A DNA stretch of 64,000 nucleotides from an archaeon. GTDB taxonomy: Archaea; Micrarchaeota; Micrarchaeia; Anstonellales; Bilamarchaeaceae. Positions 309 through 26,583 of this stretch are shown here, one piece after another (the stretch's first letter is position 1; each line of letters opens with the position of its first letter). Under the pieces are notes generated by a model. That model did no database searches and was not told the origin of the DNA. It saw only the letters and a list, made by a program, of their open reading frames with translations. The stretch lies in the NCBI GenBank assembly GCA_020053355.1, contig JAGVNI010000007.1, positions 70,838-134,837 on the forward strand, written 5' to 3'. The translations under genes were made by a program, and so were the position numbers.

Positions 309-2758
<2,450 letters not shown>

Positions 2759-2760
2759 CT

Positions 2761-5603: not shown

Positions 5604-5660
5604 CGCAGGGAAATACACCACCGTAACGTATATTAACTCCTTTCGCCCCATAAAACTAGT

Positions 5661-6092
5661 ATGCGAACCGAGTTGGTGCAGCTCATTGGCGACTATTATT
5701 TTTCAATGTTTGGTGAGCCAGTTAGTGTAGAATCTTTTCAAAAAAGGCTACAATTTCAAAAATTTGTCTACACATTGGCGCACTTCAACATCATCCCAGA
5801 AGCAAAACCCTTATTCAATTGGTATATCCGAGGCCCTTATTCAAGCACAATTATGGATATTGCGTATGAACTTAGGAGTTCGGATATGTCCTTTGAGTCT
5901 AAACCACTTCCATCTGAACTATCCTTTTTTAATGAAATTAAAAATGATTCTCGAAAAATAGAATTATACGCCTCGCTTTTGTTCCTGAAGGATGCAAGGT
6001 ATTCTAAATCCGAGGCCAAAAAGCTGATTTTAATAAGAAAACCAGATTATTCACTCGAAGAAATTGAAGAAATGATTTCTCATATTCGTTGA
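5661..6092 (+). CDS. Panacea (DUF4065)-like antitoxin-type protein
   Basis: The segment FQKRLQFQKFVYTLAHFNI...KPLFNWYIRGPYSS resembles the KLQKLLYYAQ...PLF..W.YGPV core of DUF4065/SocA-like proteins. Confidence 0.5.
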   Translation: MRTELVQLIGDYYFSMFGEPVSVESFQKRLQFQKFVYTLAHFNIIPEAKPLFNWYIRGPYSSTIMDIAYELRSSDMSFESKPLPSELSFFNEIKNDSRKIELYASLLFLKDARYSKSEAKKLILIRKPDYSLEEIEEMISHIR

Positions 6093-6127
6093 ATGCAATT
6101 CGAACAAGCTCGATATGATCTACATTT

Positions 6128-7243: not shown

Positions 7244-7312
7244 ATTCTTTCCTCGGTGTCGGTATATTCCAACTTAATTTTATAAATCAGTACCGACGTT
7301 AAGCCTAAAAAC

Positions 7313-7333
7313 TAGTACGTACTAAGTACGTAC
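7313..7333. promoter_or_regulatory. Palindromic operator (TAGTACGTACTA plus a second AGTACGTAC copy) abutting a start codon
   Basis: A perfect 12-bp palindrome at 7313-7324 and a repeat of AGTACGTAC at 7325-7333, directly before the ATG at 7334. Confidence 0.4.
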
Positions 7334-7492
7334 ATGGGAAAAGGGCGAATACAGGTAGAATACGACGATGTAGATAGTCGTGAAGTAAAAGGAATGACGA
7401 AACGTCGTTGCGGCTACGTCTACTTATCGCCAGCATGGATAGACCGAAAGGTGCTGGTTCTATTGTTGCCTGAAAAGGAGATGAAAAAATGA
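7334..7492 (+). CDS. Small protein (52 aa), possible AbrB/MazE-like antitoxin or regulator. Not in the ORF track.
   Basis: MGKGRIQVEYDDVDSREVKGMTKRRCGYVYLSPAWIDRKVLVLLLPEKEMKK. Its TGA stop overlaps the ATG of the next ORF (ATGA at 7489-7492). The operator palindrome lies just upstream. Confidence 0.35.
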   Translation: MGKGRIQVEYDDVDSREVKGMTKRRCGYVYLSPAWIDRKVLVLLLPEKEMKK

Positions 7493-7779
7493 CGAGATCT
7501 ACTACTGAAGAATGGGATCAGAAAAATAGCATATTACTCAAACGCATGCAGATATACGAAATAGAATATCGCGAACGAAATTGTCTCAAGAAGACTGATA
7601 ACCACTTGAAAACAGGATGCCACGAAGTAGGTGGAGTAATCTATTGTCCAGCACTAAAAAAGTCTAAAGCAAGAAAATTCAAAAAAGAGATTGAGCAGCA
7701 GATTGCGCTCGCTTCAACGCTGAGCTCAAATACTTACTCGAATACTACTAGACGAGAAAACCCTCTACCGCTTGATTGA
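7489..7779 (+). CDS. Hypothetical 96-aa protein, coupled to the small upstream gene. Possible toxin.
   Basis: ATGA translational coupling with the 52-aa ORF. It contains C-x11-CH-x7-C. Its 3' end overlaps the convergent 7748..8836 gene by 32 nt. Confidence 0.3.
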   Translation: MTRSTTEEWDQKNSILLKRMQIYEIEYRERNCLKKTDNHLKTGCHEVGGVIYCPALKKSKARKFKKEIEQQIALASTLSSNTYSNTTRRENPLPLD

Positions 7780-8836
7780 GGAGCTCATGCTGCGGACAAT
7801 ATTTACCGACGAAGGTCCCTCGTCTAAGACTTACTGCGCTTTGCTGGAGGGCAAAACGACTTGCCACGGTTTCATAGCTGTATACTGGTTGGTGGAGTTC
7901 ATGCTCGGAACAAAGCTCGTAGATCTGGCCCATCTTCCGTATGTCGATGAAAGGACTGAATCCACTCTCTGAAACAAACTCGTCAGAGGGGTAGCGATTG
8001 GTCTGTTCTTTCCTTGAAAGAAGACCGAGACTAGCCTCATCGAATAGCCGGAGCTTAGTATAGTCCATGTCTCCCCCAGGATTTTGGTATTTTCTTATCG
8101 ATGTACTCTTGATGCCGAAGAAAGATAGCAGGCTCGGATAAGATGCTGGGATCCCTTTCCTTCTATACAGTCGTTCTACACCGCTCATATGCACCCATAG
8201 GGATTTTTTTGAGAATTCACGTAGAAAGACGAACTTCTCGTAGTTTCCAGTAAGGGAACGGTGTCTGATGTCGAGGCTCACGATGCCTGCGGCAAGGGCA
8301 GCTTCGATTTTATTCTCGAATGCCTCATCGTTATCACTTGCCATATCAATCAATACTCTTGGGAGTTTATCCTTTGACCGAATGGCGTCGATACAGTTCC
8401 CGATGTCTACCTCTAGCGATTCCACCGAACTCTCTGGTGATCGCTCGGGTATTGTCACGATGTCCAGTTCGCTCATCAACTGGCCACGGACATAGTTTCC
8501 AACAAACGTGTCGTCAAGGTCTCTCCATTTCGTTCCTGCACCAGGTTGTGCGCGTTGTAGAGTATGAGAAGCAACGCGAGAAGATTGGCCAGCAAGGCGC
8601 AAGTTTAATTCTTGGGAAAACGAGTCGTCGCTTCCCTTGACATTGAGTCCGAGCCGATTGAGATCATCGTCGATTATCTCGAATAGTTCATGAGGATATT
8701 CATAAGAGGTCTTTCCGAAACAGTGACTAAGACCTTTCTTGTAGCCATACTCGGTTGGCGTCAGTGCCCGCGTAGGCAACAGAACATGATTCGTTGGGGT
8801 TTCGAGAACCCATCCACCATCAATCAACTTCGTCAT
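7748..8836 (-). CDS. Hypothetical 362-aa protein, possibly a TGT/DpdA-like TIM-barrel. Weak.
   Basis: The start is taken at MTKLIDGG, whose ATG overlaps the stop of the upstream 75-aa gene (ATGA). GGWVLETPTNHVLLPTRALTP loosely resembles the hG.veTP.FMPVGT motif of tRNA-guanine transglycosylase-family enzymes. There is a C/H cluster near the C-terminus. Confidence 0.5.
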   Translation of the reverse strand: MTKLIDGGWVLETPTNHVLLPTRALTPTEYGYKKGLSHCFGKTSYEYPHELFEIIDDDLNRLGLNVKGSDDSFSQELNLRLAGQSSRVASHTLQRAQPGAGTKWRDLDDTFVGNYVRGQLMSELDIVTIPERSPESSVESLEVDIGNCIDAIRSKDKLPRVLIDMASDNDEAFENKIEAALAAGIVSLDIRHRSLTGNYEKFVFLREFSKKSLWVHMSGVERLYRRKGIPASYPSLLSFFGIKSTSIRKYQNPGGDMDYTKLRLFDEASLGLLSRKEQTNRYPSDEFVSESGFSPFIDIRKMGQIYELCSEHELHQPVYSYETVASRFALQQSAVSLRRGTFVGKYCPQHELLNQAVEGFLV

Positions 8837-9060
8837 ATTTTGTTCCCTCCTTCTTTCTTTTTTTGTATCGAAACTAATATACATGCAGCACCTATCGCTA
8901 CGACAGTTCCACGAGTGAATCGTTGGACCTCCACATTCGATTTTTTCAGAGTTTCTAATACCTTTTCGTCCAGTGCAGACAGCCCGGAATGAAGTAATTC
9001 GGATTGGGCAGTTTCGAGGATCTTCTTCTCTTCTTCGGAGACCAATATCGTAGTTACCAT
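8833..9060 (-). CDS. Small 75-aa protein with a C-terminal hydrophobic helix (tail-anchored)
   Basis: Complete ORF. The hydrophobic segment is VVAIGAACILVSI. It lies 46 nt downstream of the RHH gene and is translationally coupled to the 362-aa gene. Confidence 0.45.
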   Translation of the reverse strand: MVTTILVSEEEKKILETAQSELLHSGLSALDEKVLETLKKSNVEVQRFTRGTVVAIGAACILVSIQKKKEGGNKI

Positions 9061-9106
9061 GAATGTCAGAAATATATTCCTATATACATTATATAAACAT
9101 ATCTGT

Positions 9107-9253
9107 TCATTTTTTATTATCAGCCAACCAGCTTTCTATGGCTGTTCCAATAGCTTTGGAAATGCTGCCCTTTTTCAGTCCAAATACGAGTGCAGCTTTC
9201 TTTCTGAGGCGATTCTCAAGTTCATCGGGTAAAACGATTTGCATTCGTCCCAT
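9107..9253 (-). CDS. Ribbon-helix-helix (CopG/antitoxin-type) DNA-binding protein, 48 aa
   Basis: MGRMQIVLPDELENRLRKKAALVFGLKKGSISKAIGTAIESWLADNKK is a classic RHH beta-strand plus two helices. The listed 110-aa ORF has an implausible hydrophobic N-terminal extension, so I take the start at the internal MGRM. Confidence 0.6.
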   Translation of the reverse strand: MGRMQIVLPDELENRLRKKAALVFGLKKGSISKAIGTAIESWLADNKK

Positions 9254-9273
9254 AAACACATAACTACATATAC

Positions 9274-9282
9274 ATTTATAAT
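9274..9282 (-). promoter_or_regulatory. TATA box for the RHH-led operon
   Basis: On the minus strand TTATAAAT lies about 22-29 nt upstream of the RHH ATG, in an AT-rich repeat-containing spacer. Confidence 0.4.
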
Positions 9283-9395
9283 CATTAATATATGAGATAT
9301 ACACATATACACATGCCGAGGCGATTGAAATAACGATGGGTTGCATTAGTTGTGGTTCCTCTGACATCAAAATGAACGGCAGGGCGCTATAAACG

Positions 9396-9779
9396 CTATT
9401 TTTTCCGTGACTCGTTCTCCCTGACCCTGTACCGGACAATCCTTTTCACCAGGCCAAACGGTATCGGTTCATCAATCGGGAACTGGACGGACCCTTTCGC
9501 CTGCTTATAAGGGGAAAGCTCATTTTTGAAGACGGCAATCGCCGACGGGGTGGGGTAAAACCCGATATGCTTCTTAAACGCTGCAAAATGCACAAGGTTG
9601 CCGTTCTGCCTGAATGTCGGTATCCCGTACCTAATCGTTTCTTCGGCATTGGGTGCGGACTCCCTGATGGCCAGCCTGAGTTTTCTTAATATACCCTGGA
9701 TTTCTGGCGGAAATGCGGCGATATACCCGTCCATGGTTTTTTGCTGTTTTTTTGGCATTTCCATACCTATTGCTCCCAT
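9396..9779 (-). CDS. DUF1801 (YdhG-like) family protein
   Basis: MPKKQQKTMDGYIAAFPPEIQGILRKLRLAIRESAPNAEETIRYGIPTF...LVHFAAFKKHIGFYP matches the DUF1801 pattern. The true start is probably at MPKK, near 9758. Confidence 0.65.
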   Translation of the reverse strand: MGAIGMEMPKKQQKTMDGYIAAFPPEIQGILRKLRLAIRESAPNAEETIRYGIPTFRQNGNLVHFAAFKKHIGFYPTPSAIAVFKNELSPYKQAKGSVQFPIDEPIPFGLVKRIVRYRVRENESRKK

Positions 9780-9831: not shown

Positions 9832-12123
9832 TCACCCGGCCTCGAAAATCTTCATCTTGGCCTTCCACTGCTCGACCGCGTCCTTGAACTTGTCCTTGCT
9901 TACGAACAGGATGGAATCCAGCAGGCGGTTGCGCATGATGACTATCACCGTCTTGTCGCCGACAGCCGCGAAGCTCTGCGGCTGGTGCTGGCCGAGGTTC
10001 TTCGCCAGCGCGTGCATGTACGAGAACAATTTCATGCCGAGGGCGGTCATCACCGTGCTCCCCCCTTCGGAGAATTCCGCGAGGATGACCTTTTCCTGCT
10101 TCATGATGATGGCGCCCTTAAGGAGGCCCTTCCCGAGCATTTCCTGGACGAGCTGGTCCGGCGACACCTTCCTCTTCTTTATGACATCGCGCTCGAAACT
10201 GAGGCCTTCCACCCCGGCCTCCTTGGCATACCTGCCGAGCGCCCAGCCGCGCAGTGATGCGGGCACGGTAACCAGGGAGGTCACATAGACCTCGTTCTGC
10301 TCGTCGAGCATCTTTGTGATGCTGTCTTTCCACCTGGGCCAGTTGTCGTCGGCCAGCTTCTTCCTTCCCTTCAGGCTGGATACCGCATTCTCGACCCTTG
10401 CCAGATAATCATCGATCAAAGCCTTGCTCCTTGCGGTCATGTCCTTTGTGAGTATGTCTATCTTCTCCGATTTCACGGTCGTGAAGACGTCATATTCCTT
10501 GCTGATGTCGAAATCCTCCTTGGCGTATTCTTCCACCAGCGATTCAAGCTCCTTCATCCTGTCTTTGAGGGAGGCGGCCTTGGCGAGGAACATGTCCTTC
10601 TCCTGCCGTATCACGATGCCGTATGCCCGCTCAAGCACGGTAATCTTCGCGAAATTCTCAAGGGCGAAATACGCCATCAGGACGCCTATCAGCGTCATTC
10701 CTATCGCTATCACGCCCATGTCGTTCTTCATGAGGAAATCCAACGACTCAAGGAGGGGGGGAATGCTCGCAGGCGGCGTCGCGACGACTGTCGCCATGTA
10801 ATACCCGGCCGCCAGCATCACCACGGCGACGACCATATCAGCCTTCCAGCGCACGTCCGTCCTGCCGAACGCCTTCCGGAAGCCTGTCGTGAGGCTTGCT
10901 CCGGCGACCCTTTCGCTAATCATCGTGAATGCGAGCACGATGATGTTGTATATGAACAGGAGGACAGCCAGCGTAACGCCTACTGCAGCGCCGAAGGCCA
11001 GGAAATAGTTCTTCAGGATGCCGTTGAATGCCAGGAGGATGAAATTCGTCGGCGCGAGAGGAAGGAGGTTTATGTGCTTGACCCGGATGTCCGGCGTCCG
11101 CATCCCTGCGATGACGTTGTCCGGCGCCTCCTGGGACTGGAACTCGTAATATAACTGGTATCCCTCCTCGTTCGACTTTGCCGACGTCCAGTTGACAATG
11201 GAATATCCGCCTGACTCGGTTGCGGAGATGGACTGTATCGATGAGATGCTTTCGGTGTCGAGCACCATGTTCGACGGGACCTTGTCCGTGATGCCCATTC
11301 CCGCCACCTCGACTCCGATGTCCTGCCCGCCGCTTGTAGATACGGGCTTGACCGTAACCAGGACGTGGTAGCGGTAGCTGGCGTTCTGCACCGTGTACGT
11401 GCCGACCTTCCGGGTGGCTTCAAGCATGTACGGGATGCCGAAATCCGAGTGGGTGCACAGCCCGAACTCGTCACTCGAGTAGATGGGATTCGCGTTTATC
11501 TCCGCGATGCGGTTGATTATCAGCCTGGTCTTGCCGAGGAACTCGTCCCTCTCCGTATCAGTGCCCTCGCGGAGCGTGAGCACCATCCTGCGGGCATCAA
11601 GGAGAAGCGAGCGTATCTCGTTGTTCGCCTTCACGTATGATATCATGGACCCTGCAAGGACCTCCTCGTCCGATGCGGCGATTTTCCTGCATTTCTGCGA
11701 TGCGCTCGAACATAGCTTCGTGCATGTCGAGACATCCGAGCAGACCACGTTGCTGAGGCCGATATTGGCGCTGCATGCCGTGTCTGCCTGTATCCTGGAT
11801 TTGGAGAACTCGTCAAGGCTCTGGTCGGCTACCAGGAGGTCGACATCTGTCAAATTCGGGTTGACCGAAGTATAGACCGCAGAGGTGTCCACAGTGACAG
11901 TGACCTGCCTCTGGATTGTCATGCCGGCTTCCTTGTTGGAAACCGGCGAGAAGTCATAAATCAAATAATCCGCGCTACCGTCCCCGTCCAGGTCGGTAGG
12001 CTGGGCGCTGGTCACCTGCTCGGCCTTTCCCCCTTGGTACGGGCTTTCACCAAGGCAGCCAAAACCCATCAGGAATATTGCAAACAATAAGACTATGCAC
12101 CGGCGCATGAAGTGTGTTTCCAA
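9832..12123 (-). CDS. Large membrane protein (763 aa): signal peptide, extracellular domain, multi-TM core, cytoplasmic coiled-coil tail
   Basis: The N-terminus has a hydrophobic signal sequence (RRCIVLLFAIFLMGFGC). Several TM helices lie mid-protein and the C-terminal 250 aa are charged and helical. I recognise no family. Confidence 0.55.
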   Translation of the reverse strand: METHFMRRCIVLLFAIFLMGFGCLGESPYQGGKAEQVTSAQPTDLDGDGSADYLIYDFSPVSNKEAGMTIQRQVTVTVDTSAVYTSVNPNLTDVDLLVADQSLDEFSKSRIQADTACSANIGLSNVVCSDVSTCTKLCSSASQKCRKIAASDEEVLAGSMISYVKANNEIRSLLLDARRMVLTLREGTDTERDEFLGKTRLIINRIAEINANPIYSSDEFGLCTHSDFGIPYMLEATRKVGTYTVQNASYRYHVLVTVKPVSTSGGQDIGVEVAGMGITDKVPSNMVLDTESISSIQSISATESGGYSIVNWTSAKSNEEGYQLYYEFQSQEAPDNVIAGMRTPDIRVKHINLLPLAPTNFILLAFNGILKNYFLAFGAAVGVTLAVLLFIYNIIVLAFTMISERVAGASLTTGFRKAFGRTDVRWKADMVVAVVMLAAGYYMATVVATPPASIPPLLESLDFLMKNDMGVIAIGMTLIGVLMAYFALENFAKITVLERAYGIVIRQEKDMFLAKAASLKDRMKELESLVEEYAKEDFDISKEYDVFTTVKSEKIDILTKDMTARSKALIDDYLARVENAVSSLKGRKKLADDNWPRWKDSITKMLDEQNEVYVTSLVTVPASLRGWALGRYAKEAGVEGLSFERDVIKKRKVSPDQLVQEMLGKGLLKGAIIMKQEKVILAEFSEGGSTVMTALGMKLFSYMHALAKNLGQHQPQSFAAVGDKTVIVIMRNRLLDSILFVSKDKFKDAVEQWKAKMKIFEAG

Positions 12124-12159
12124 GGTGTTCTTTTAAAATCTTGCCGCGGACGCTAATAT

Positions 12160-13440
12160 ATGCAGAAGGTGTTAGCGCGGGTCTTGCCGGCGATAAAACC
12201 GAGCCCCGAAGAGCTTTCGGCGGAACTGGCTTTCGCTGAGCTCATGGTCGCGCACATCCGGGACAACGCCCCCAAGGGATGCGATGTGGTCCTGACCGGC
12301 TCGATGGCGAAGCGCACGTTCCTTCGCGACAAGAGGGACATCGACATCTTCGTCCTCTTTAACCGCTCGGTGCCGAGGGATTCGCTGGAATCCTTCATCA
12401 AGGACATAATGGCATCATCATTCCCTGGCCTGGGCTACCAGTTGAGCTACGCGGAGCATCCGTACTCGCGCTTCCATTTCGAAGGGAGGCGGATAGACCT
12501 GGTCCCTGCGTACAAGATAACGAAAGCAGCGGAGCGAATCAGCTCTGTGGACCGCTCGGTCCTCCACACGGGATTCGTGAATTCCCGCCTGAAAAAAAAG
12601 CAGGTGGACGACGTATTGCTCCTCAAGCAGTTCCTCCGGGGAAACGGGATTTACGGGGCGGAAATCAAGATAGAAGGATTCTCCGGGTACCTCTGTGAAC
12701 TCCTGGTAATCAGGTACGGCGGCTTCCCGGCCCTTCTGAAAGCTGCGGCCAAATGGAAGGCGGGGGCCCCAGCCGGATTATTCATCGATATCAAGAAATA
12801 CTACAAGATTGCCGAAGCCAAGGAAGCGGCGAAACGCTTCTGCAGTCCCCTAGTCGTTATAGACCCAACCGACAAGAACCGCAATGTCGCCGCGGCGGTC
12901 TCTGAAGCCAACCTTAAGCTGTTCATCTCGCTAAGCAAGGCATTCATAAAGAAACCCGCCGAGGGGCACTTCTTCAAGAAACCGGTCACATTCGATGAGC
13001 AGGCCGCAAGGGCATCGAAGGGGAAAAAGCTCTTCCTGCTTTCCATGCCCCGGCCGGACATCGTGGACGATATCCTCTGGGGCCAGTTGCACAAGATGCT
13101 CGGGCAGCTGAAATCCCATCTGAAGGAGTTCGGCCCCAAGGCAATCCTGGCAGACGATTCGCGCCATCTTGTCCGCCTCGCCATCATATTGGAACATGAC
13201 CGCCTTCCGGATAAGATGCTCGTTGCGGGCCCGCCATTGGCAATGAAGAAGCATGTCATTGAATTCAAGAAGCGGCACAAAAAGGGGAAATTCATTATCA
13301 AGAAGAAGAAGCTCTTCGCCGAGGTGAAGCGCCCGGTCGTAAAGGCCGAGGACGCGATTCATGCGTTCTTCCGCGCGTTCGCGACGACGCGTTCGCATCT
13401 CGCGTACCCGGAAGAGATGCTTGTCATTGAGCGAAAATAA
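12160..13440 (+). CDS. cca: CCA-adding tRNA nucleotidyltransferase, archaeal class I
   Basis: 426 aa. A Pol-beta-like NTase motif (GSMAKRTFLRDKRDIDIFVLF) and the overall layout match archaeal CCA enzymes. Confidence 0.85.
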   Translation: MQKVLARVLPAIKPSPEELSAELAFAELMVAHIRDNAPKGCDVVLTGSMAKRTFLRDKRDIDIFVLFNRSVPRDSLESFIKDIMASSFPGLGYQLSYAEHPYSRFHFEGRRIDLVPAYKITKAAERISSVDRSVLHTGFVNSRLKKKQVDDVLLLKQFLRGNGIYGAEIKIEGFSGYLCELLVIRYGGFPALLKAAAKWKAGAPAGLFIDIKKYYKIAEAKEAAKRFCSPLVVIDPTDKNRNVAAAVSEANLKLFISLSKAFIKKPAEGHFFKKPVTFDEQAARASKGKKLFLLSMPRPDIVDDILWGQLHKMLGQLKSHLKEFGPKAILADDSRHLVRLAIILEHDRLPDKMLVAGPPLAMKKHVIEFKKRHKKGKFIIKKKKLFAEVKRPVVKAEDAIHAFFRAFATTRSHLAYPEEMLVIERK

Positions 13441-18057: not shown

Positions 18058-18544
18058 TATGGCCGGCATCGCTAAGTTTAAATTACGCGTATCCAGATAT
18101 CATATGTATATGCCGACGCTCGACCCAGTCGCGAAAAGCCTTCTTAACGGCGTAGCCCTGATACTGATTCTATACGTCGTTGCAGTGCCGTTTTTCATAT
18201 ACATCGAAGGCTTGACGATGATTGAATCCATTTACTTCGTCACGGTGTCGATAACAAGTGCCGGTTACGGGGACATAGTGCCTAAGACGGATGCGGGACG
18301 CATGTTCACGGTCGTCCTCCTGCTCTCCGGGGTTTCGATATTCTTCTATCATGTGACGCACATCGGCCAGTTCAAGGAGAGGATGATTGACCCGCACATC
18401 CAGCGCAGGCTCCAAATCCTCCGCAACCTGACCTCCCTCCAGGGCGGGGAAATGGAATCGGCCCAGCTCAAGAAAATCAAGGAGAAGATGTATCTGGACA
18501 AGGACAAGGGCGATGACCGGAACCAAGGGTTCGGTAGGCTATGA
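18058..18544 (+). CDS. Two-TM K+ channel (KcsA-like pore, filter TSAGYGD)
   Basis: The likely start is MAGIAKF. It has TM1, a pore helix, a selectivity filter (SITSAGYGD) and TM2. Its stop overlaps the next gene's ATG (ATGA). Confidence 0.7.
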
Positions 18545-19239
18545 ACGCCCCGGACCTCTATGGGGAGAAGTTCGCCAGGAATCCTATCACGAAGGCCCAG
18601 CAGGCCCGGGTGCAAAAGTCGGTATTCGCGATAATCGGCCTCGGAGGGACGGGCGGCTTCATACTCGAGAACCTGCTCCGGATGGGGGCCGAGAAGCTCG
18701 TTGTTTTCGACCACGACCGCTTCGAGCTCTCCAACTTCAACCGCCAGTCGCTCGCGACCGAGGAATTCCTGGACATGCCGAAAGTCCACGCGGCAATCGC
18801 GCGCGCAAAAACCATCAATAACGGCATCGACATCCGCACGCATGAGGAGTTCGGCGAAGAGTCGGGCCCGGCTATCAAAGGCGCCGACATCGTCCTGGAC
18901 GGGACGGACAACGTGAAATCGAAGCTCATCCTTTCCCGGATGGCCCGCTCAATGGAAATTCCGTATGTCTTCTGCTCAGCCCAGGATTCGCGGGGCATAG
19001 TCAGCGTCTTCACATCGTATCGGTTCGAGAAAGCATTCCACCTCCCGAAAGAGGAGGAAGCCCTCGAGCGCTACCAGATGTGCCAGAGCATCATCTGCCC
19101 AGCCGCTTCGCTCGCAGGGACGCTCGCAGCATCGCAGGCCGTTAATGTCCTTCTGAAAAAGCCCTTCGCCAAGGCCCCGCAGGCGATTTTCTTCGACCTC
19201 TTCAAAAAGGACGTGTTCTGGAAGGGGCGGCTCGGATGA
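18541..19239 (+). CDS. ThiF/MoeB/HesA-family E1-like protein (possibly TcdA-like)
   Basis: A Rossmann motif (AIIGLGGTGG) and the ThiF fold signature. It is short (232 aa) and lacks a CxxC zinc motif. Confidence 0.8.
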   Translation: MNAPDLYGEKFARNPITKAQQARVQKSVFAIIGLGGTGGFILENLLRMGAEKLVVFDHDRFELSNFNRQSLATEEFLDMPKVHAAIARAKTINNGIDIRTHEEFGEESGPAIKGADIVLDGTDNVKSKLILSRMARSMEIPYVFCSAQDSRGIVSVFTSYRFEKAFHLPKEEEALERYQMCQSIICPAASLAGTLAASQAVNVLLKKPFAKAPQAIFFDLFKKDVFWKGRLG

Positions 19240-19526
19240 ACGATTTCTTCGTGATTGCCCCGTGCGCTACCGCAAACGGTGTGGAGATTAAGCTTAACGG
19301 CAAGACTATTGACATGGCCAAAGCCGGGGCCGCGTTTACCAAGCTGGGCGATGTTGTGGGCAGCAGCCCGGTCGTCCTCCTTGCGAAAATCGGCGGCTAT
19401 TCCGTCAGCGTCTACGGGAGCGGAAGGATGATGGTGAAGGGAAAGCGCAAGCCGTCGGACAAGGCGGCAAATGCGCTTGCCAAGAAAATAGTCTCAGCTC
19501 TCGAAAAGGAAGGTGCGCTCATATGA
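19236..19526 (+). CDS. Small hypothetical protein (96 aa), coupled on both sides
   Basis: ATGA overlaps with both the upstream E1-like gene and the downstream PHP gene. No C-terminal GG. Confidence 0.5.
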   Translation: MNDFFVIAPCATANGVEIKLNGKTIDMAKAGAAFTKLGDVVGSSPVVLLAKIGGYSVSVYGSGRMMVKGKRKPSDKAANALAKKIVSALEKEGALI

Positions 19527-20188
19527 GAATCGATTTCCACGTCCACACGAATGCATCCATCGACTCCCTAATCGAGCCGAACGCCCTTGCAAGGAAATCC
19601 CTCGAAACCGGCATCATCCCGGCAATAGCGGACCACAACAATATCGGTTCGCATGCGAAGATGCGCGCCCTCAAGGCACCGTTCATACCGGCCGAGGAGA
19701 TTTCCACAGACAAGGGCGACCTGATAGGCCTATTCATCAGCGAGCTGATTCCCAAGAAGACGCCCATCCTTGAGGCAATCGACATAATCCACGCCCAGGG
19801 CGGCCTTGCCTACCTCCCGCACATGTTCGACTACGGGCGCTCGAAAGGCCGTGCGAGCGAGGGCGAATCGTCGAAAGCCGACATCATAGAAATCTTCAAC
19901 GCACGCTGCATGCGCAAGGAATACAACGAGAATGCGGCGGCGTTCGCGAAAGCGCACAAGCTTCCCGGCGCGGCAGGGAGCGACAGCCACTTCTTCTTCG
20001 AATTCGGCCGGACATACACCGACCTTCCGGATTTCGGCCCCGGCGACTTGGACAACCCGAAGACGCTCCTAAAATCCCTTCATACCCAAAACCCGAAACT
20101 CGTTACCCATACGGCCCCATTCTTTGTCCGGGGCACGACCTCAATCATCGCCATGACCAGGAAGCTTTCGCGCGCGCTCCGCAAATGA
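19523..20188 (+). CDS. PHP-domain metal-dependent phosphoesterase
   Basis: MRIDFHVHTNASIDS...AIADHNN...GSDSHF are the PHP His/Asp motifs. Confidence 0.8.
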   Translation: MRIDFHVHTNASIDSLIEPNALARKSLETGIIPAIADHNNIGSHAKMRALKAPFIPAEEISTDKGDLIGLFISELIPKKTPILEAIDIIHAQGGLAYLPHMFDYGRSKGRASEGESSKADIIEIFNARCMRKEYNENAAAFAKAHKLPGAAGSDSHFFFEFGRTYTDLPDFGPGDLDNPKTLLKSLHTQNPKLVTHTAPFFVRGTTSIIAMTRKLSRALRK

Positions 20189-20251
20189 CTGGCGCCATCC
20201 CTAAGGGAAAGGGCGAAATCTATTTAATGATAAGACAAGCATCCATCATCG

Positions 20252-21352
20252 ATGGCTGAATCTTTCGTCGGCATTGAAGTTGCCGTCATCGTTGTCACCG
20301 CGTCCATCGTCCTTGCCGGCATACTGGTCGGCCTCGGCCGGGCATTCGGCTTCAAGCGAATCGAGATGTTCGGGCTTGAGGAGCTGATACAGTCCATAAT
20401 CAACGCGGCAATCATAGGCTCCTTCGCCGCGGTAATCGAGCTTGTCGGCGTGATAAGCTCCTCGGTTGTCAGCGAGACGTGCTCCAAAGGCAACGTCATC
20501 ATGCAGCTTTCCTGCACCCTCGGCAACCTCAACGACGCCCTCTTCTCGCTCATGCAGGGGATGATTCAGCTCCTGAATATCGTCGGCTATTACCAGGACC
20601 TCGCCTTGGATTTCGGCGCGTTCTCGGTCTCCCCGTTTTCGAACCTCGCTTCCGTTTCCGGCGCACTTTCCCAGCAGCTCCTCAACATCAATACGTTGAT
20701 GATGCTGGTCGAATTGAACACCCAGATAGCGGCATTCATCGGGCAGAACGCCCTCGCCCTGCTGTTCCCTGTCGGGCTCGTCCTGCGCACGTTCTTCGCC
20801 ACAAGGAAAGTAGGGGGGTTCATGATAGCCCTCGCAATCGGCCTCTACGTCTTCTACCCGACTTTCATCCTCATCTTCCCGGACCCGGCGCCGGACATCA
20901 TGAACTCCACGATTCTGGTTGAGAACTTCACGAACAACAGCTTCTATGCGGCCGCCCCGGTGATAGACCTTAATGGCAACTACGCGATAGCAGGCAAACT
21001 CGACCTCCTAAGCGGTAGGTGCAACCCGGCCGACTACAACCTCTCGACCTGGATAGTTTTGGAAAACGGTACCAACGTCACCCACTCCACCAACGTCTCG
21101 AACACCACCACAATGTGCGACGACTACCTCATTTCGCAGAACTGGACCTCGAATGTCACAGCCAACCACACCATCGACATGAGCGGCGAATTGACGATGA
21201 TTCTCCAGTCTGACAGCAGCTCGCTCGCAAAATCCGCCCTGTATTCCGTCATCGCGCCCATCTTCTCGCTCGCAGTGACGTTCGTCTTCGTCCGGGAGCT
21301 TGCGAACATCCTGGGTAGCGAAATCGGCTTCAAGACAATCGCGAGCATATGA
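20252..21352 (+). CDS. Polytopic membrane protein with a densely N-glycosylated extracellular domain
   Basis: 366 aa with several TM helices. There are about 14 N-x-S/T sequons within roughly 120 aa, including NSTILVENFTNNS...NLSTWIVLENGTNVTHSTNVSNTTT...NWTSNVTANHT. Confidence 0.6.
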   Translation: MAESFVGIEVAVIVVTASIVLAGILVGLGRAFGFKRIEMFGLEELIQSIINAAIIGSFAAVIELVGVISSSVVSETCSKGNVIMQLSCTLGNLNDALFSLMQGMIQLLNIVGYYQDLALDFGAFSVSPFSNLASVSGALSQQLLNINTLMMLVELNTQIAAFIGQNALALLFPVGLVLRTFFATRKVGGFMIALAIGLYVFYPTFILIFPDPAPDIMNSTILVENFTNNSFYAAAPVIDLNGNYAIAGKLDLLSGRCNPADYNLSTWIVLENGTNVTHSTNVSNTTTMCDDYLISQNWTSNVTANHTIDMSGELTMILQSDSSSLAKSALYSVIAPIFSLAVTFVFVRELANILGSEIGFKTIASI

Positions 21353-21356
21353 TGGC

Positions 21357-21545
21357 ATGGCGATGCTTTCCCACAATCCCAACATCCTCTTTGCGACCGT
21401 CGCAGTCGTAGTCGCGTGGATTGTCATCTTCCAGCCGCTATCGAGGGCGTTTCCCGACCTGGGCCTCCTCTTCATCGGCCTCTGGCTCCTCTTCACCCTC
21501 GCCGCCTTTCTCTTCTTCCTGATGAGGATCTGGGGCCGCAAGTAA
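21357..21545 (+). CDS. Small 2-TM membrane protein (about 62 aa)
   Basis: MAMLSHNPNILFATVAVVVAWIVIF...LGLLFIGLWLLFTLAAFLFFLM. The start is chosen after the stop of the upstream gene. The listed ORF at 21300 overlaps the previous gene. Confidence 0.4.
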   Translation: MAMLSHNPNILFATVAVVVAWIVIFQPLSRAFPDLGLLFIGLWLLFTLAAFLFFLMRIWGRK

Positions 21546-21586
21546 TTGGATTCAGATTTTTAAACCATGCAATCGAAGGGATTTAC

Positions 21587-22369
21587 ATGTTCATGAACCG
21601 CGCCGTGACGGGCATCTCGCTTCTGGGCGGGCTTGTCGCAATCGTAATCTCCCTCCTTACAGGAAATCCGATAATGCCAATCGTCGCGGCTGTCTTCTTC
21701 TCCATGACGATGCTCCTCTGGAAATACGGGTATCTTATAATACCGTTTTTCACGAAAGCGACCAACATAATCGAGGTCCACGGCGGATACGAAGTCCCCC
21801 CGACCCGCGACTACATCATAAAGAAGGACGAGAACGGCTATTACGCGAGCAAGTTCCTCGAAATCCGCTTCTACGAGAGCTCGATGGACAAGAACACGGA
21901 AGAGAAGAAGACGATGTTCGATTCCTTCGAAAAGGCAATCAGCTCCCTCAAATACATCGTCAAGATATCGCTGATGATTAGCACCCTCGATTTGTCCAAG
22001 CACATAGATGAAATCAAGACCAAGCGCGGCAGCGTCGAAGCCAAGAAGGCGAAAGAGTCGAAAATCGCCGCGGACGAGAGCATGCGCATGGACAGGGAGC
22101 TTGCATACTGGAACCGCCTCCTGGACCGCATCACGCAGGGCGAGAGGCCGGTCGAAATCATCGCCTTCGCCACCACGACCGCATTCGGCCTCACAAGGGA
22201 CGAGGCCCTAAGCAGGGTGAGCAGGCAGGCCAAGGAACTGAAGACGATTCTTTCAAGCTCGCTTGGCTGCGATATCCGCGACCTCACTGATTTGGAGATG
22301 CTCCGCTGCTTCGAGTGGGACTTCTTCTTCCCGACCACGCAGGAGGAAATCAAGGACGCGTTGTTCTGA
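21587..22369 (+). CDS. Membrane-anchored protein (2 N-terminal TM helices plus a soluble domain)
   Basis: The start is taken at MFMNRAVTGISLLGG, in frame with the listed 21416 ORF, whose 5' part overlaps the small membrane gene. Confidence 0.5.
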   Translation: MFMNRAVTGISLLGGLVAIVISLLTGNPIMPIVAAVFFSMTMLLWKYGYLIIPFFTKATNIIEVHGGYEVPPTRDYIIKKDENGYYASKFLEIRFYESSMDKNTEEKKTMFDSFEKAISSLKYIVKISLMISTLDLSKHIDEIKTKRGSVEAKKAKESKIAADESMRMDRELAYWNRLLDRITQGERPVEIIAFATTTAFGLTRDEALSRVSRQAKELKTILSSSLGCDIRDLTDLEMLRCFEWDFFFPTTQEEIKDALF

Positions 22370-22451
22370 TTTCTCCGGAACCAAGTTTTATCCCGAACCC
22401 AAAACCCGAAACCGGGAACCGGAAACCCCAATCGCCAGACCGCCGTTCCTC

Positions 22452-22464
22452 CAGCCATTATATT
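22452..22464 (+). promoter_or_regulatory. TATA-like element upstream of the ATPase gene
   Basis: TTATATTTATATA lies about 50 nt upstream of the ATG at 22511. Confidence 0.3.
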
Positions 22465-22510
22465 TATATACCGCCCCGGCGATAGTTCTTACGTCTGAGG
22501 TAAGGCAACG

Positions 22511-24109
22511 ATGAAATCATCCTATATGCTCTCCAAGGAGGTCGCACGCAAGATGATTCTTGTGCATCCCCCGGAGCCGAGGAAAGAGCTTCTGCTTTCG
22601 CTCCCGACACAGGGCGTATATATCGGAAAGACGCGCTTTCTTAGGACGCCCGTCTTCTGGAACCCCGCAAAACTCATCAACCCGCACCTTGCGATAATCG
22701 GCATAACCGGCTCGGGCAAATCCTACACCGTGAAGACGTTCCTCACCCGCGCATCCATGATTTGGAACACGAACGCGGTCATATTGGACTGGGTGGGCGA
22801 ATACAACGAATGGGTGAGGCAGGCAGGCGGCCGCGTCATTAACCTGGCCAAGGAGCGCCTGAACATCCTCGACCTCGTCGGCCTCCCGAAAAGGAGCAGG
22901 ATAAAGCAGATTATCTCCGCCCTCGACATCCTACTCGACCTTAAAAGCTACCCGAACGAGCGCGACGACATAGAAGAGGCGCTCGAATTCGTCTATTACA
23001 AGGCGAATAGCGCAAAACCATCGCTCAAGGAGCAGGCCAAGGCGATGCGGGACGAGCAGAAGAAGATGCATAAGTTCAAGCTCAATAAAGAGGACGTCAA
23101 GGAGGCGCTCGGCGAACTGTGCGAAGGCGGAAGGTGCGAGAAGCCGACGCTTGCGCATGTCGTCCATATACTCGAACGCAATGGCAAGAAGAAGGCGGCG
23201 CGCCTAGTCAAGCGCTTCACGGCCGAAGGTTCGGATTTCTTCGCAGGCTCCTCGACGCTGAACATCAAGGACATAACGTCCAGCGGCCTGGTCGGCATCG
23301 ACCTGCACGACCTTCCGAGCGAGGAGATGCGCTCCCTTGCCGGCCTCACAATCCTGCAGTATATCAAGGAGCTGATGCGCGCCGAGGGCATGCAGAAGGA
23401 CAACAAGCATGTGCGCCTTTTCGTCGTGCTGGATGAGGCGTGGAAAATCGCCCAGGATGAGCGCTCGGACGTCATAACAATCGTCCGCGAAGGGCGCAAG
23501 TACAATTTTTCCTTGGTCATCGCCACGCAGAACCCCTCGGACATGCATAAGACGATTTTCAGCAACATCGGGACGGTGTTCGTCCTGCGCCTTATCCTAA
23601 AGGAGTATCGCGACTATGTCCGGAACTCAATCGGATATTCCGATTTCATCGACGGGGAGATATCCAAGTTCGGCGTGGGCGACGCCGCAGTCAACATGAT
23701 ATTCGCGGAAAGGCAGTCCCGCGTCATGACGTTCCTCATGGACAAGATTGACGGGGAAGAGCCATTGCTCATATACAAGATTCGGGGTGGAGAGATGATT
23801 GTCGAAATAGAGCGGGAGCAGTTCGTGCGGATGCTTTACGAGATAGGCCTCAACGAAAGCCAGCTCGGCCTGATTAAAAGCGAGTTCGAGCGCGGGGACG
23901 GCCTCCTCGACGGGGAACAGCTGGTTGCCGTTTTGGAGAAATTCGGCTACTCGAAGCCGTCCATAATCTCGTTCCTGCGCCAGTTGGGCATAGATGAGAA
24001 GAACCTCATCAAGGTCTTCTCGCTTGTCCGCATGCGCAAAGCCACAAAAGGCGTCGTGAACGTGGTCCTCGAGGACGGGGCGAACCCGCCATCCCTCAAG
24101 GGAATCTAA
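22511..24109 (+). CDS. VirB4/HerA/FtsK-superfamily ATPase (DUF87-type)
   Basis: Walker A (GITGSGKSYT), Walker B (LFVVLDEAW) and REGRKYNFSLVIATQNPSD, which is typical of DUF87, TraG-like and VirB4-like ATPases. Confidence 0.75.
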   Translation: MKSSYMLSKEVARKMILVHPPEPRKELLLSLPTQGVYIGKTRFLRTPVFWNPAKLINPHLAIIGITGSGKSYTVKTFLTRASMIWNTNAVILDWVGEYNEWVRQAGGRVINLAKERLNILDLVGLPKRSRIKQIISALDILLDLKSYPNERDDIEEALEFVYYKANSAKPSLKEQAKAMRDEQKKMHKFKLNKEDVKEALGELCEGGRCEKPTLAHVVHILERNGKKKAARLVKRFTAEGSDFFAGSSTLNIKDITSSGLVGIDLHDLPSEEMRSLAGLTILQYIKELMRAEGMQKDNKHVRLFVVLDEAWKIAQDERSDVITIVREGRKYNFSLVIATQNPSDMHKTIFSNIGTVFVLRLILKEYRDYVRNSIGYSDFIDGEISKFGVGDAAVNMIFAERQSRVMTFLMDKIDGEEPLLIYKIRGGEMIVEIEREQFVRMLYEIGLNESQLGLIKSEFERGDGLLDGEQLVAVLEKFGYSKPSIISFLRQLGIDEKNLIKVFSLVRMRKATKGVVNVVLEDGANPPSLKGI

Positions 24110-24126
24110 GCGGAGGTGGCACATAA

Positions 24127-24831
24127 ATGGCCGAAGAGAAAATCACGGTATCCGGAAAACAGAAGAAGCCGCTTAAAAGCCTGGCCACGCTGCTGAGCGG
24201 GCTCGGCTTCACAAGGATAACCTATGCCAAGAACGTGCTCTCTGTCGAGAAAATCAAGGGCACCGACCTCCAGGGCAAGCCGTACCTTGAATACCGCGTG
24301 GAATTCAAGGACGACACCATCGACTTCCTCTACAGCTTCTCAGCCAAAAGGAGCCGCATCGCCCGCCTTCTCGACCTTATGCCGACATTCCTGAACATAC
24401 TCCAGGTGGCCGAGGACTACTACGATGTCCGGCCGACCGGCATCTTCATGCACATCAACGCGCTTCTTTCCGAGACGTCCAAGATAATCGACCGCGACGC
24501 ACTCGAGTTTTCGACGCAGCTCTCCGAGCTCCAGGCGCGCTATACGGACATGAACGCCAAATACGACGACCTTGTCCGCTCGGGCGAGGCGAACACGCGG
24601 CTCCTCCTGGAGTGCGAAAGGAAGCGGGATGAGGTCCAGAAGAAACTGACCACGCTAAGCGGCATGGGGGACGACCTCCTGAAAGAGACCCTGTACAGCT
24701 GGATTAAGCTCCACGGCGGGACAATCGACGTCCGCGAATTCTCCAAGGCGCACACGGTCGCGGTCACAAGGGCCGAAGACGGCCTCAACATGCTGATACG
24801 CGAAGGCTACATCCGGAGGCGCTTCGAATGA
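24127..24831 (+). CDS. Hypothetical soluble protein with a probable C-terminal winged helix
   Basis: 234 aa, lying 18 nt after the ATPase gene. Its stop overlaps the next ATG. Confidence 0.5.
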   Translation: MAEEKITVSGKQKKPLKSLATLLSGLGFTRITYAKNVLSVEKIKGTDLQGKPYLEYRVEFKDDTIDFLYSFSAKRSRIARLLDLMPTFLNILQVAEDYYDVRPTGIFMHINALLSETSKIIDRDALEFSTQLSELQARYTDMNAKYDDLVRSGEANTRLLLECERKRDEVQKKLTTLSGMGDDLLKETLYSWIKLHGGTIDVREFSKAHTVAVTRAEDGLNMLIREGYIRRRFE

Positions 24832-25106
24832 GCCGGAAGAGGAAAAAGAAAGCGGGCGCATCCGCAGCAAGCCAATCACGTTCGAACGAAGCTGGAAACC
24901 GGAAACAGGAAACCGCGAACCCTGCGCAGGAAGCGGAAGGCGCGGGGCAGGAAGCCCCCATCACCCAGTACATCTTCACCTTCGAGCTGATCCGCCACTA
25001 TCCGACGGTGCGCTCGTTCATCGTGAAGCAGCCGCTCAAGCGCTCGTTCAAGGATACGGTGTCCGAGCTGTTCGGGGGCAACAAGAAAGGGGTTTACCGG
25101 ATATAA
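24828..25106 (+). CDS. Small basic protein (92 aa)
   Basis: ATGA overlap with the upstream gene. The N-terminus is Lys/Arg-rich. Confidence 0.4.
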   Translation: MSRKRKKKAGASAASQSRSNEAGNRKQETANPAQEAEGAGQEAPITQYIFTFELIRHYPTVRSFIVKQPLKRSFKDTVSELFGGNKKGVYRI

Positions 25107-25154
25107 CCGGCGCAATCCATTCAACTGCCATCACTCCAACCAGAGGGTTTTGAC

Positions 25155-25277
25155 ATGAAATCCGAAGGCATTCCCAAGATGGGGATATCGCGAACTGCGG
25201 TTCGCGAGCATGCTCATGGTCGATTCGTCGACCATGACATACAAAACCCCACTTGGCAAGACATGAGAGGGTTTTGA
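25155..25277 (+). CDS. 40-aa uORF upstream of purD
   Basis: It starts within an exact 18-nt copy (25143-25160) of the purD initiation context GAGGGTTTTGACATGAAA (25267-25284). It stops 1 nt before the purD ATG. Confidence 0.3.
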   Translation: MKSEGIPKMGISRTAVREHAHGRFVDHDIQNPTWQDMRGF

Positions 25278-25278
25278 C

Positions 25279-26583
25279 ATGAAAGTTCTTATCGTAGGCA
25301 ACGGGGCCAGGGAGCATGCGATAGCCGAGAAACTGGCTCAGGACTGCGAATTGTACGCCGTAATGTCCAAGAAGAACCCGGCAATCGCCCAGCTATCGAA
25401 AGAATACTGGATAAGCGACATCGAGAACGCCGAAGCGGTCGGCAAGGCGATTGCGGGCCGGGAGTTCGATTTGGGATTCGCCAGCCCGGACGCCACGCTG
25501 GCCGCGGGTGTCAGCGACATCCTGGCCAAATGCGGGATGCTTGTCGCATCCCCCTCAAAGGAAGCCGCGCGCATCGAGTGGGACAAGTCGTTCATGCGGA
25601 GCCTGCTTGAGCGGCATAAAATCCGCGGCTCGCCGAAACACGAGGTTGTCACAACCGTCGGGGACGCACGGAGGGTCGTCAAGGACCTGGGCATGGTCGC
25701 AATCAAGCCCCTTGGTCTGACCGGAGGCAAGGGCGTAAAAATCAGCGGCGACCACTTCAGCGAGATAGATGAGGGGATGGAGTACGCGAAATCGCTCATA
25801 GACAAGGACGGCAGCGTCCTTATCGAAGAGAAGCTCGTGGGGGAGGAATTCACGTTCCAGTGCTTTTCGGACGGCTCCCGGATTGCGACGATGCCGCCTG
25901 TGCAGGACCACAAGCGGGCATTTGAGAATGATTTGGGCCCGAACACCGGGGGGATGGGCTCGTATTCCTCAGGGGCCCGCCTGCCGTTCACCAAAGAGCA
26001 GGATATGGACGAGGCCAAGAAAATCCTCCAGGGCGTCATACATGCCATGAAAAAAGACGGCAACCCCTTCCGGGGCGTCCTGTACGGGCAGTTCATGGTC
26101 ACCGCGCACGGCGTGAAAATAATCGAGTTCAACGCCCGCTTCGGCGACCCGGAGGCCATGAACGTCATCTCGCTCCTCGAAGACTCGCTCACCAATGTCT
26201 TCCTCTCGATTGCCGAGGGGCAGCTGTCGAACCCGTCTTTCTCGGATGATTGCACCGTCGTCAAGTACATGGTGCCGCAAGGGTATCCGGACAAGCCGCT
26301 TAAGGATGCCGCCGTATCGATTGACGCTTCAGGCATCGAATCATCTGGCGCGAAGGTGTACTATGCGTCCGTTTACGAGGAGAAGGGGAAAATCCTGACT
26401 ACCGGCTCCCGGGCTTTCGGCGTGCTCGGGCGGGCGGGGAACCTGCAGGATGCCGAGCGGATTGCCGAGAAAGGCTGCTCATGCATAAGCGGGCCCGTAT
26501 GGCACCGGCCGGACATCGGGACGATGGGGCTAATCAGCAGGAAAGTGGAGCGCATGCGTTCCATCCGGGGCGAATCATCATGA
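25279..26583 (+). CDS. purD: Phosphoribosylamine--glycine ligase
   Basis: MKVLIVGNGAREHAIA... is the GARS N-terminal domain, followed by ATP-grasp and C-terminal domains. 434 aa. Confidence 0.9.
   Translation: MKVLIVGNGAREHAIAEKLAQDCELYAVMSKKNPAIAQLSKEYWISDIENAEAVGKAIAGREFDLGFASPDATLAAGVSDILAKCGMLVASPSKEAARIEWDKSFMRSLLERHKIRGSPKHEVVTTVGDARRVVKDLGMVAIKPLGLTGGKGVKISGDHFSEIDEGMEYAKSLIDKDGSVLIEEKLVGEEFTFQCFSDGSRIATMPPVQDHKRAFENDLGPNTGGMGSYSSGARLPFTKEQDMDEAKKILQGVIHAMKKDGNPFRGVLYGQFMVTAHGVKIIEFNARFGDPEAMNVISLLEDSLTNVFLSIAEGQLSNPSFSDDCTVVKYMVPQGYPDKPLKDAAVSIDASGIESSGAKVYYASVYEEKGKILTTGSRAFGVLGRAGNLQDAERIAEKGCSCISGPVWHRPDIGTMGLISRKVERMRSIRGESS

Follow-up and report, generated by a model that had tools for sequence, protein, structure and literature searches.

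A gene cluster of a Micrarchaeota (DPANN) archaeon, itself probably tiny and symbiotic, may bear on the open question of how DPANN archaea, which have tiny genomes and little biosynthesis and are often attached to other archaea, are supplied by their hosts with DNA precursors and other material. The cluster occupies positions 20252-25106 of a chromosomal stretch of 64 kilobases (kb), called the window in the following. All six codirectional open reading frames (ORFs) listed by a first-pass annotation, which likened the layout to the archaeal Ced and Ted machineries, are present; they are designated g1 to g6 (Table 1). The present analysis indicates that the cluster is probably a minimal, Ced/Ted-like apparatus derived from a type IV secretion system (T4SS), which is fixed in the chromosome and vertically inherited in Micrarchaeota. 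The locus is a concrete and strongly conserved candidate for a supply route of this kind, with a predicted glycoprotein in the position of the channel, a VirB4 motor in two pieces, and a winged-helix partner.

The g4 protein matches the Pfam families DUF87 (expectation value E 4e-18) and AAA_10 (2e-16), as expected from its earlier description as a DUF87/VirB4-type ATPase, and it carries a Walker A motif (GITGSGKS, residues 64-71), a Walker B motif (VVLDEAWK, 305-312), and an REGRKY-type arginine segment (326-331). In the ranking of the NCBIfam models, CedB comes first with 97 bits, followed by the VirB4-like CD1110 (76), CedD (69), VirB4_plasma (65), and HerA (at most 55). The alignments cover only the C-terminal motor half of the models, e.g., positions 392-672 of the 752 of CD1110. 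A search with the C-terminal domain of g4 finds no match among the PDB sequences. An exhaustive representative search returns 2468 relatives, 113 of them below 1e-30, and one relative carries the automatic annotation "DNA import protein CedB". The nearest database relatives are 66-95% identical to g4 and are nearly all labelled Candidatus Micrarchaeota, Bilamarchaeum, or "ainarchaeum". Some orthologues contain inteins: in L034 (4846-7890) one of 517 amino acids (aa) follows directly after GITGSGKS and ends in VHN before S, P0369 has one at the same site, and P0371 has one at Walker B. Inteins in P-loops are typical of slowly evolving essential ATPases.

The N-terminal domain that a VirB4-type ATPase has and g4 lacks is, by homology, encoded by g3. 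Among the relatives of g4 are proteins of 690-910 aa, in which two transmembrane (TM) helices and a domain of ~230 aa precede the motor. All four of these fused homologues that were scanned match the CedB model from position ~60-100 to 587 of 590 (E 1e-26 to 7e-42), and in L004, the sole long contig at hand, the fused ATPase is preceded by two genes with the Pfam domain CedA1 (PF27251; 6659-7811). In the family-to-family comparison with hhalign, g3 aligns over its full length with the N-terminal 310 aa of these fused proteins (probability 99.5%, E 3e-23) when these are represented by a seven-sequence alignment, while against P0425 alone the value is only E 0.12. The top eight Foldseek matches of the g3 model are all chains of TrwK, the VirB4 of R388, with probabilities of 0.94-1.00, and both fold searches return R388 TrwK/VirB4; the g3 family profile has no match among the PDB sequences. 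A distant g3 homologue (L134) matches positions 5-186 of the CedB model directly (E 2.4e-9). When g3 and g4 are joined in silico, the score for CedB increases from 97 to 106 bits and that for CD1110 from 76 to 87 bits.

Since g3 matches the N-terminus of the fused homologues, the fold of TrwK, and, through L134, the N-terminus of the CedB model, these profile and fold comparisons identify g3 and g4 as one VirB4/CedB-type ATPase made in two polypeptides, with g3 as the predicted membrane anchor plus N-terminal domain and g4 as the P-loop motor. The Ced/Ted-like origin proposed in the first-pass annotation is thereby supported: among the NCBIfam models, those of CedB and VirB4-like proteins score g4 best, and g3 supplies the missing domain. 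The description of g3 as bitopic has to be corrected, as translation starts from the ATG at 21587 instead of the GTG that opens the long ORF, and the protein consists of an N-terminal two-helix membrane hairpin followed by a cytoplasmic domain of ~200 aa; all 120 listed homologues have 248-274 aa, nearly all exactly 260. In VirB3-VirB4 fusions, VirB3 occupies the place that the hairpin has in g3. The split of VirB4 falls precisely where the N-terminal domain meets the motor and so offers a natural experiment on the function of that domain.

The junction of the two genes is variable in the Micrarchaeota relatives, the spacer ranging from -1 nucleotide (nt) to 5.1 kb (22370-22510 in the window). 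Variation is seen in L001, L006, L007, L009, L013, L016-L018, L021, L029, and L047, and the inserts encode beta-helix/NosD surface proteins of 1200-1259 aa, proteins of 795-946 aa with 2-3 TM segments, and a hydrolase. In L007, the 3' end of g3 is duplicated and borders the insert, and in L013, g1 and g3 are separated by a TnpB-like gene. The promoter of g4, including the TATA box of its own that had been noted before, belongs to a block of ~55 nt that is conserved in the window, L005, L007, and L008 despite 0.1-0.7 kb of unrelated upstream sequence, and that is kept 3' of every insert examined. In the window, an A/C-rich heptamer array (CCCGAAA, ~5.4 copies, 22392-22428) lies in the spacer, 5' of this block.

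The arrangement around the ATPase is kept far beyond the close relatives of the window. The comparison comprises 134 loci, taken from 43 GTDB genomes, 80 metagenome contigs, and several look-ups; the metagenomes were scanned with a profile of a 10-sequence ATPase alignment, the 31 distant ATPases being too diverse. The g3 gene precedes that of the ATPase in 105 of the 108 loci with enough flank, and g5 follows it in 97 of 105; g1 is within 7 kb in 44 of 82, and a VirB2-type pilin in 13 of 82. In the tightest arrangements (L038, L041), the genes of the module abut or overlap. The order pilin-g1-g3-g4-g5 is found in L041, the most divergent Micrarchaeota genome sampled, and also in L133 and L134, two loci on contigs with archaeal ribosomal or lipid genes, where the ATPase shares just 26-27% identity with g4. 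In L049 (ATPase 34% identical), pilin-g1-g3-g4 is kept with no detectable g5. The conserved partners of g4 are thus, as judged from their sequences, membrane and pilin proteins, and not the unrelated neighbours of a HerA/NurA-associated or FtsK-like ATPase that had been named earlier as the opposite outcome.

The pilin assignment rests on the small neighbour proteins, 18 of 24 of which match Pfam T4SS_pilin and 14 of 24 TrbC/VirB2 (best 1e-6), the best match among the PDB sequences being a weak one to the R388 pilin TrwL (E 0.098). At the first count, the pilin was present in L041 and 14 further related loci, L133 and L134 being added later; the related loci encode pilins with signal peptides, in up to four paralogues. 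A comparison of this family with the 84-aa CedA1-Pfam protein of L004 gives E 0.14 and was discarded. The ATPase of L133 (JGI contig Ga0307374_10000001, 587 kb) is labelled "Candidatus Acidoferrales bacterium" in NCBI, probably as a result of a binning or labelling error, because the contig has archaeal ribosomal proteins (S4e etc.), RNase P p29, and CCA-adding enzyme. The same locus encodes, as a second P-loop protein, a VirB4/CedD-like one of 754 aa (11158-13422).

The polytopic protein g1 was described earlier as having about 14 sequons in one loop. Its polytopic nature, with five hydrophobic segments, and the loop are confirmed and the loop is conserved, but the sequons number 11, all within residues 218-305, in the loop between TM4 and TM5. 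Their density in this loop is 9.2 per 100 aa, compared to 0.42 for the proteins of the window, and the same loop has 5-14 sequons (median 9.5) in 37 g1 homologues. Two cysteine pairs, C77/C88 and C257/C289, are conserved. The predicted topology has the N-terminus outside and the C-terminus inside; from the positive-inside charge distribution, both cysteine regions and the sequons would therefore lie on the outside.

The N-terminal hairpin of g1 aligns with the pilin family in the family-to-family comparison (hhalign probability 73%, E 3e-5). A pilin-like hairpin of this kind has been described for CedA relative to CedA1 and for VirB6 relative to VirB2 (PMC9905601). The hidden Markov model (HMM) of the g1 family matches polytopic neighbours in distant loci (E 5e-14 to 9e-55), where they stand beside VirB2-type pilins and the split ATPase; the family profile has no match among the PDB sequences. 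The comparison with CedA/CedA1 that had been called for thus gives agreement in position, topology, and pilin-like hairpin, but membership of the VirB6/CedA family is not proven, because a direct profile comparison with the proteins that match Pfam CedA1 in L004 and L132 reaches only E 0.007-0.02. We describe g1 as the likely occupant of the VirB6/CedA position, with weak direct homology.

The two-TM miniprotein g2 is real, in that the ORF from ATG 21357 looks coding, with the pattern of genuine genes (guanine-plus-cytosine content, GC, of 0.54/0.37/0.84 at the three codon positions). It is, however, not part of the module: g1 and g3 are separated by 9-107 nt, or overlap, in ~30 of 36 Micrarchaeota loci, and g2 is missing from nearly all of them. 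It has no match to the pilin HMM, and its score with the sole other small ORF in that position, that of L017, is 27, compared to a shuffle mean of 29. As there is no similarity to either, g2 is treated as a lineage-specific orphan and not as a component of the system.

Several observations weigh against a Ced-like assignment. The scores of g4 are far below all curated cut-offs (97 vs 700 bits for the CedB equivalog NF041017), and the PADLOC models of HerA score g4 almost as high as CedB does, at 91 bits, with mad8 matched too, so that the motor alone cannot separate the VirB4/CedB clade from that of HerA. The structure models of g3 and g1 are of moderate confidence only, with predicted local distance difference test (pLDDT) scores of 65-69. 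Even with the filters switched off and a threshold of E 50, the 64-kb window yields no VirB2-type pilin, and phmmer searches with g4 and the second ATPase of L133 find no further FtsK/HerA or VirD4/CedD-like ATPase there, which bears out the earlier statement that a VirD4 coupling protein is lacking. Finally, g5 has a winged helix resembling those of ESCRT-II and CdvB, and the extreme conservation of the module would also fit a role in the cell cycle.

This last point raises the possibility that the cluster encodes a membrane-tethered, FtsK/HerA-like DNA pump, connected to division or segregation through the winged helix of g5. This helix had been recognized earlier, as had the coupling of g5 and g6; the g5 gene has the Shine-Dalgarno sequence GGAGGTG. 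The g5 family matches Pfam EAP30 (ESCRT-II Vps22/36) in 14 of 29 members, the best (3.6e-8, 33.9 bits) being above the gathering cut-off of 26.8, and its profile matches the CdvB winged helix 2xvc with E 2e-4. There are also coiled-coil matches to ZapB and DivIC, and a conservation at least equal to that of housekeeping enzymes, the P-loop inteins, and the housekeeping neighbours would suit such a function as well. However, the g5 of the window itself has no Pfam match at E 0.01 or below and stays under every threshold, and the coiled-coil matches are generic. The N-terminal domain is moreover of the VirB4/CedB type, not of the FtsK type or the HerA HAS-barrel type, and VirB2-type pilins and a polytopic partner with a pilin-like hairpin accompany the module. 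We therefore consider a cell-cycle machine quite unlikely compared to a T4SS derivative. Three fused CedB-like ATPases (P0398, P0406, P0425) have a C-terminal extension that by eye has the look of a winged helix-turn-helix (wHTH) plus a PD-(D/E)xK-type nuclease; its comparison with g5 gives E 0.2, and no relationship is claimed.

The small g6 protein has a counterpart in a much larger one. Outside the clade of the window, g5 is followed in 34 of 77 loci by an ectoprotein of ~650-910 aa with two TM segments, the cytoplasmic N-terminus of which aligns with g6 (hhalign probability 82%, E 1e-5). By this similarity, the lineage of the window appears to keep only a g6-sized piece of the ectoprotein. 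A two-TM protein of 120-180 aa, present between g4 and g5 in many loci outside Micrarchaeota, is absent in the window.

We have also considered that the apparatus moves no nucleic acid at all and is instead a filament, surface-assembly, or protein-secretion machine, which extracts pilins or exports and anchors glycosylated surface proteins for attachment to a host cell. In the canonical T4SS, VirB4 powers pilus biogenesis, and the absence of a VirD4/CedD-type coupling ATPase from the window points the same way. So do the pilin paralogues and the ectoprotein (roughly 860 aa) of the related loci, the beta-helix proteins encoded between g3 and g4 in some Micrarchaeota, and g1, itself a predicted surface glycoprotein. 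Nevertheless, the lineage of the window has lost the adjacent pilin and, but for the g6 remnant, the ectoprotein, yet g1, g3, g4, and g5 are strongly constrained. The g5 protein might bind DNA through its winged helix, and the closest characterized systems, those of the Ced type, import DNA (PMC9905601, PMC11868833). A pure surface-assembly machine is accordingly judged unlikely, although less so than a cell-cycle machine.

The T4SS-derived apparatus behaves, in terms of conservation, like a core function. Across the loci, g4 is 58-96% and g3 57-94% identical, as compared to 50-83% for PurD in the same loci, and many genomes share the housekeeping flanks (ThiF, PHP, purD, and others), the context being fixed in 43. 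The GC of the cluster (0.53-0.58) is the same as that of the flanks, and all its genes have the codon-position pattern of the genome, with a third-position GC of 0.75-0.84, so that the composition is native, as had been noted. These sequence comparisons indicate a cluster that is inherited like a housekeeping function and is not plasmid-borne.

The remaining explanation, that the cluster is the remnant of an integrated conjugative plasmid or integrative and conjugative element, or a HerA repair or anti-phage module that merely lies beside membrane genes, is very improbable on these grounds. It draws on the PADLOC matches of g4 and on two PHROG matches, one of unknown function and one to a terminase, and archaeal VirB4-like genes are often on plasmids (PMC12857230). 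The position among housekeeping genes is, however, identical in dozens of genomes, and g3 and g5 accompany g4 in more than 90% of the loci. The plasmid search gives no relatives above 26% identity (VirB4/TraC at 23-26%) and none at all for g1, the IMG/VR search gives nothing, and the phage search one remote match. No integrase is found near the cluster, and there is no signal of an integration site either, since the sole tRNA in the Rfam and tRNA scans of the window is a tRNA-Gly at 46705, 21 kb away. Neither NurA, Mre11, Rad50, SIR2, nor any other defence partner adjoins the cluster in the PADLOC, Pfam, and NCBIfam searches, and g1, g3, g5, and g6 are without match in PADLOC and PHROGs. All ORFs of the cluster fit families other than relaxases, for which no search with dedicated models was made.

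For the T4SS-derived apparatus, the following picture can be proposed. The g3 protein would tether a g4 hexamer beneath the polytopic glycoprotein g1, its hairpin taking the position of VirB3 in VirB3-VirB4 fusions, and g1 would expose its heavily N-glycosylated, disulfide-bonded loop at the cell surface. Hydrolysis of ATP by g4 would drive the passage of macromolecules through g1, or the assembly or extraction of pilin-like subunits there, while g5, as a coiled-coil dimer with a winged helix, and g6 may act as cytoplasmic adaptors for a substrate or partner. A pilus is doubtful in the lineage of the window, because no pilin gene is within reach. By analogy, the most likely role is to take up or exchange DNA or other macromolecules where cells are in contact, because Ced imports DNA and a chromosomal T4SS is reportedly indispensable to Patescibacteria (CPR) for epibiotic growth (PMC12102498, PMC12857230).

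The comparison with Ced (CedA, CedA1, CedA2, CedB, and CedD/CedE of the Sulfolobales) reveals both likeness and difference. Ced is also a chromosomal, non-mobile, and minimal T4SS derivative, which has no relaxase, a VirB4-like ATPase (CedB, whose model is the best curated one for g4), and a polytopic partner with a pilin-like N-terminal hairpin (CedA/CedA1, PMC9905601). In the window, by contrast, the ATPase is split into the TM-anchored N-terminal domain and the motor, the score is 97-106 bits vs the CedB equivalog cut-off of 700, and neither a CedA1-type pilin nor a CedD paralogue is present. The conserved g5 and g6 are additional, the outer loop of g1 is heavily loaded with sequons, the sequences of the window type are extremely conserved, and the host is a DPANN archaeon, not a crenarchaeon.

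Ted (TedA, TedB, and TedC of the Thermoproteales), the components of which share no recognizable sequence similarity with those of Ced (PMC9905601), resembles the related loci in that these have TedC-like pilins with signal peptides beside a VirB6-like protein and a VirB4-like ATPase. The distinction from Ted is made by description and not by sequence: TedB is a single-chain VirB4, and Ted loci associate with HerA, ParA, and Rad50 (PMC9905601), for which no association is found at the locus of the window. In the VirB3-VirB4 proteins of conjugative T4SS (R388 TrwM-TrwK; MPF-FATA of monoderms and archaeal plasmids), whose TrwK chains are the best matches of the g3 model, the order of TM hairpin and VirB4 N-terminal domain is that of g3, and g4 aligns to the C-terminal half of VirB4. 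The genes are, however, divided at another point, the N-terminal domain being separated from the motor and not VirB3 from VirB4, and the window has no VirD4, no identified VirB8 or VirB1, and no mobile element.

Another DPANN lineage, the Nanohaloarchaeota, has VirB4-like ATPases near SPEARE-type surface proteins, where VirB4/TraG-like ATPases have been proposed to act in host interaction (PMC10266531). As far as a comparison by description goes, the ATPase is there fused to or beside a giant adhesin with Ig repeats, and the split N-terminal domain, g1, and g5 are not described. A full-text literature search (CedB, VirB4, T4SS, and Ced with DPANN or Micrarchaeota), of incomplete coverage, gives no description of a system such as the present one, and the 2025 review of T4SS nomenclature mentions no DPANN system. 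To our knowledge, Ced and Ted have been known only from Crenarchaeota. What is new here is a probable domesticated T4SS that resembles Ced and Ted but belongs to another lineage of archaea, with a split motor, new conserved partners, and the behaviour of core genes.

The T4SS of Patescibacteria is likewise chromosomal and without relaxase, derives from monoderm conjugation machinery, has clusters of VirB2-like pilins, and is conserved widely within its lineage, which is ultra-small and host-dependent. It differs in being bacterial, in having a single-chain VirB4 together with VirB1-, VirB8-, and VirD4-like parts, and in lacking a homologue of g5 or g6. The similarity would thus be one of lifestyle and logic, by analogy, with shared ancestry indicated only as far as the T4SS superfamily. 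A bolder and more tentative reading, which we hold to be possible but not the probable one, is that the locus is the archaeal counterpart of that system, i.e., a domesticated and essential core conduit for host DNA or nucleotides or for contact exchange, in Micrarchaeota and in the many small-genome archaea that have the g3-g4-g5 module. If true, the same machinery was recruited convergently in two great radiations of ultra-small symbionts, here with two features absent from described T4SS, namely a VirB4 motor in two pieces and an adaptor with an ESCRT-II-like winged helix.

Table 1. Positions of the cluster genes, their signals, and selected neighbours in the 64-kb window.
Feature	Coordinates	Strand	Description
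gyrB/gyrA	305-4650		Housekeeping surroundings of the cluster
TATA-like box TATTTAAT	20221-20228	+	24-31 nt 5' of the g1 ATG; read from the sequence, putative function
g1	20252-21352	+	366 aa, 5 TM segments, VirB6/CedA-like channel position (putative)
g1 residues 13-58	20288-20425	+	N-terminal TM hairpin, VirB2-type-pilin-like
g1 residues 209-328	20876-21235	+	Predicted extracellular loop, 11 N-x-S/T sequons, conserved Cys257/Cys289
g2	21357-21545	+	62-aa ORF with 2 TM segments in a lineage-specific 234-nt spacer; outside the conserved module
TATA-like box ATTTTTAAA	21556-21564	+	23-31 nt 5' of the g3 ATG; read from the sequence, putative function
g3	21587-22369	+	260 aa; 2-TM hairpin and cytoplasmic VirB4/CedB-type N-terminal domain
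g4 promoter and ribosome-binding-site block	22463-22501	+	TTTATATA at 22463-22470, GAGGT at 22497-22501
g4	22511-24109	+	532-aa motor of the VirB4/CedB/HerA superfamily without N-terminal domain; family-specific C-terminal helical domain
g5	24127-24831	+	234 aa, cytoplasmic; N-terminal domain, coiled coil, C-terminal winged helix (~180-232)
g6	24828-25106	+	92-aa basic protein; overlaps g5 by ATGA (translationally coupled)
purD	25279-26583		Housekeeping gene 3' of the cluster, ATG at 25279
GGGP synthase (PcrB)	28974		Housekeeping surroundings, which also include a geranylgeranyl reductase-like gene

Genes probably encoding a DNA polymerase and SRP54, assigned by eye, lie further along the window. 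Directly 5' of g1 is a trio (18541-20188) of a ThiF-like E1 enzyme, a 96-aa protein, and a PHP-domain phosphoesterase, which is kept in most close relatives (L001, L005-L008, L011, L015, L019, and others) and is gone from more divergent Micrarchaeota that still have g1-g5. On the 3' side, an exact 19-nt direct repeat, AGAGGGTTTTGACATGAAA, occurs at 25142-25160 and, at a distance of 124 nt, again at 25266-25284. Its second copy spans the ribosome-binding site and the start codon of purD, the first opens a 40-aa ORF, and the whole has the look of a purD 5' end that was duplicated around a short insert.

Nucleotide-metabolism genes adjoin the module in three separate lineages, which may be coincidence or a functional hint. 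Besides purD in the window, these are a purB-like (adenylosuccinate-lyase-like) gene in L129 (4191-5501) and, in L134 (1-4894 and 10293-12779), purH, pyrF, and the genes of a phosphoribosyltransferase and an AMP phosphorylase, together with a ribose-1,5-bisphosphate isomerase-like gene.

Two further observations concern other parts of the window. An island of low GC (~4900-9400; 0.38-0.47, compared to 0.55-0.59 elsewhere) with several ORFs of 96-378 aa lies directly beside gyrB/gyrA; it is probably foreign DNA and possibly carries defence or mobile genes. On the minus strand, three other predicted membrane or secreted proteins (39553-40839, 52141-52749, and 54297-55451) have 1.8-4.5 sequons per 100 aa, compared to 0.42 overall, and are probably further N-glycosylated surface proteins.

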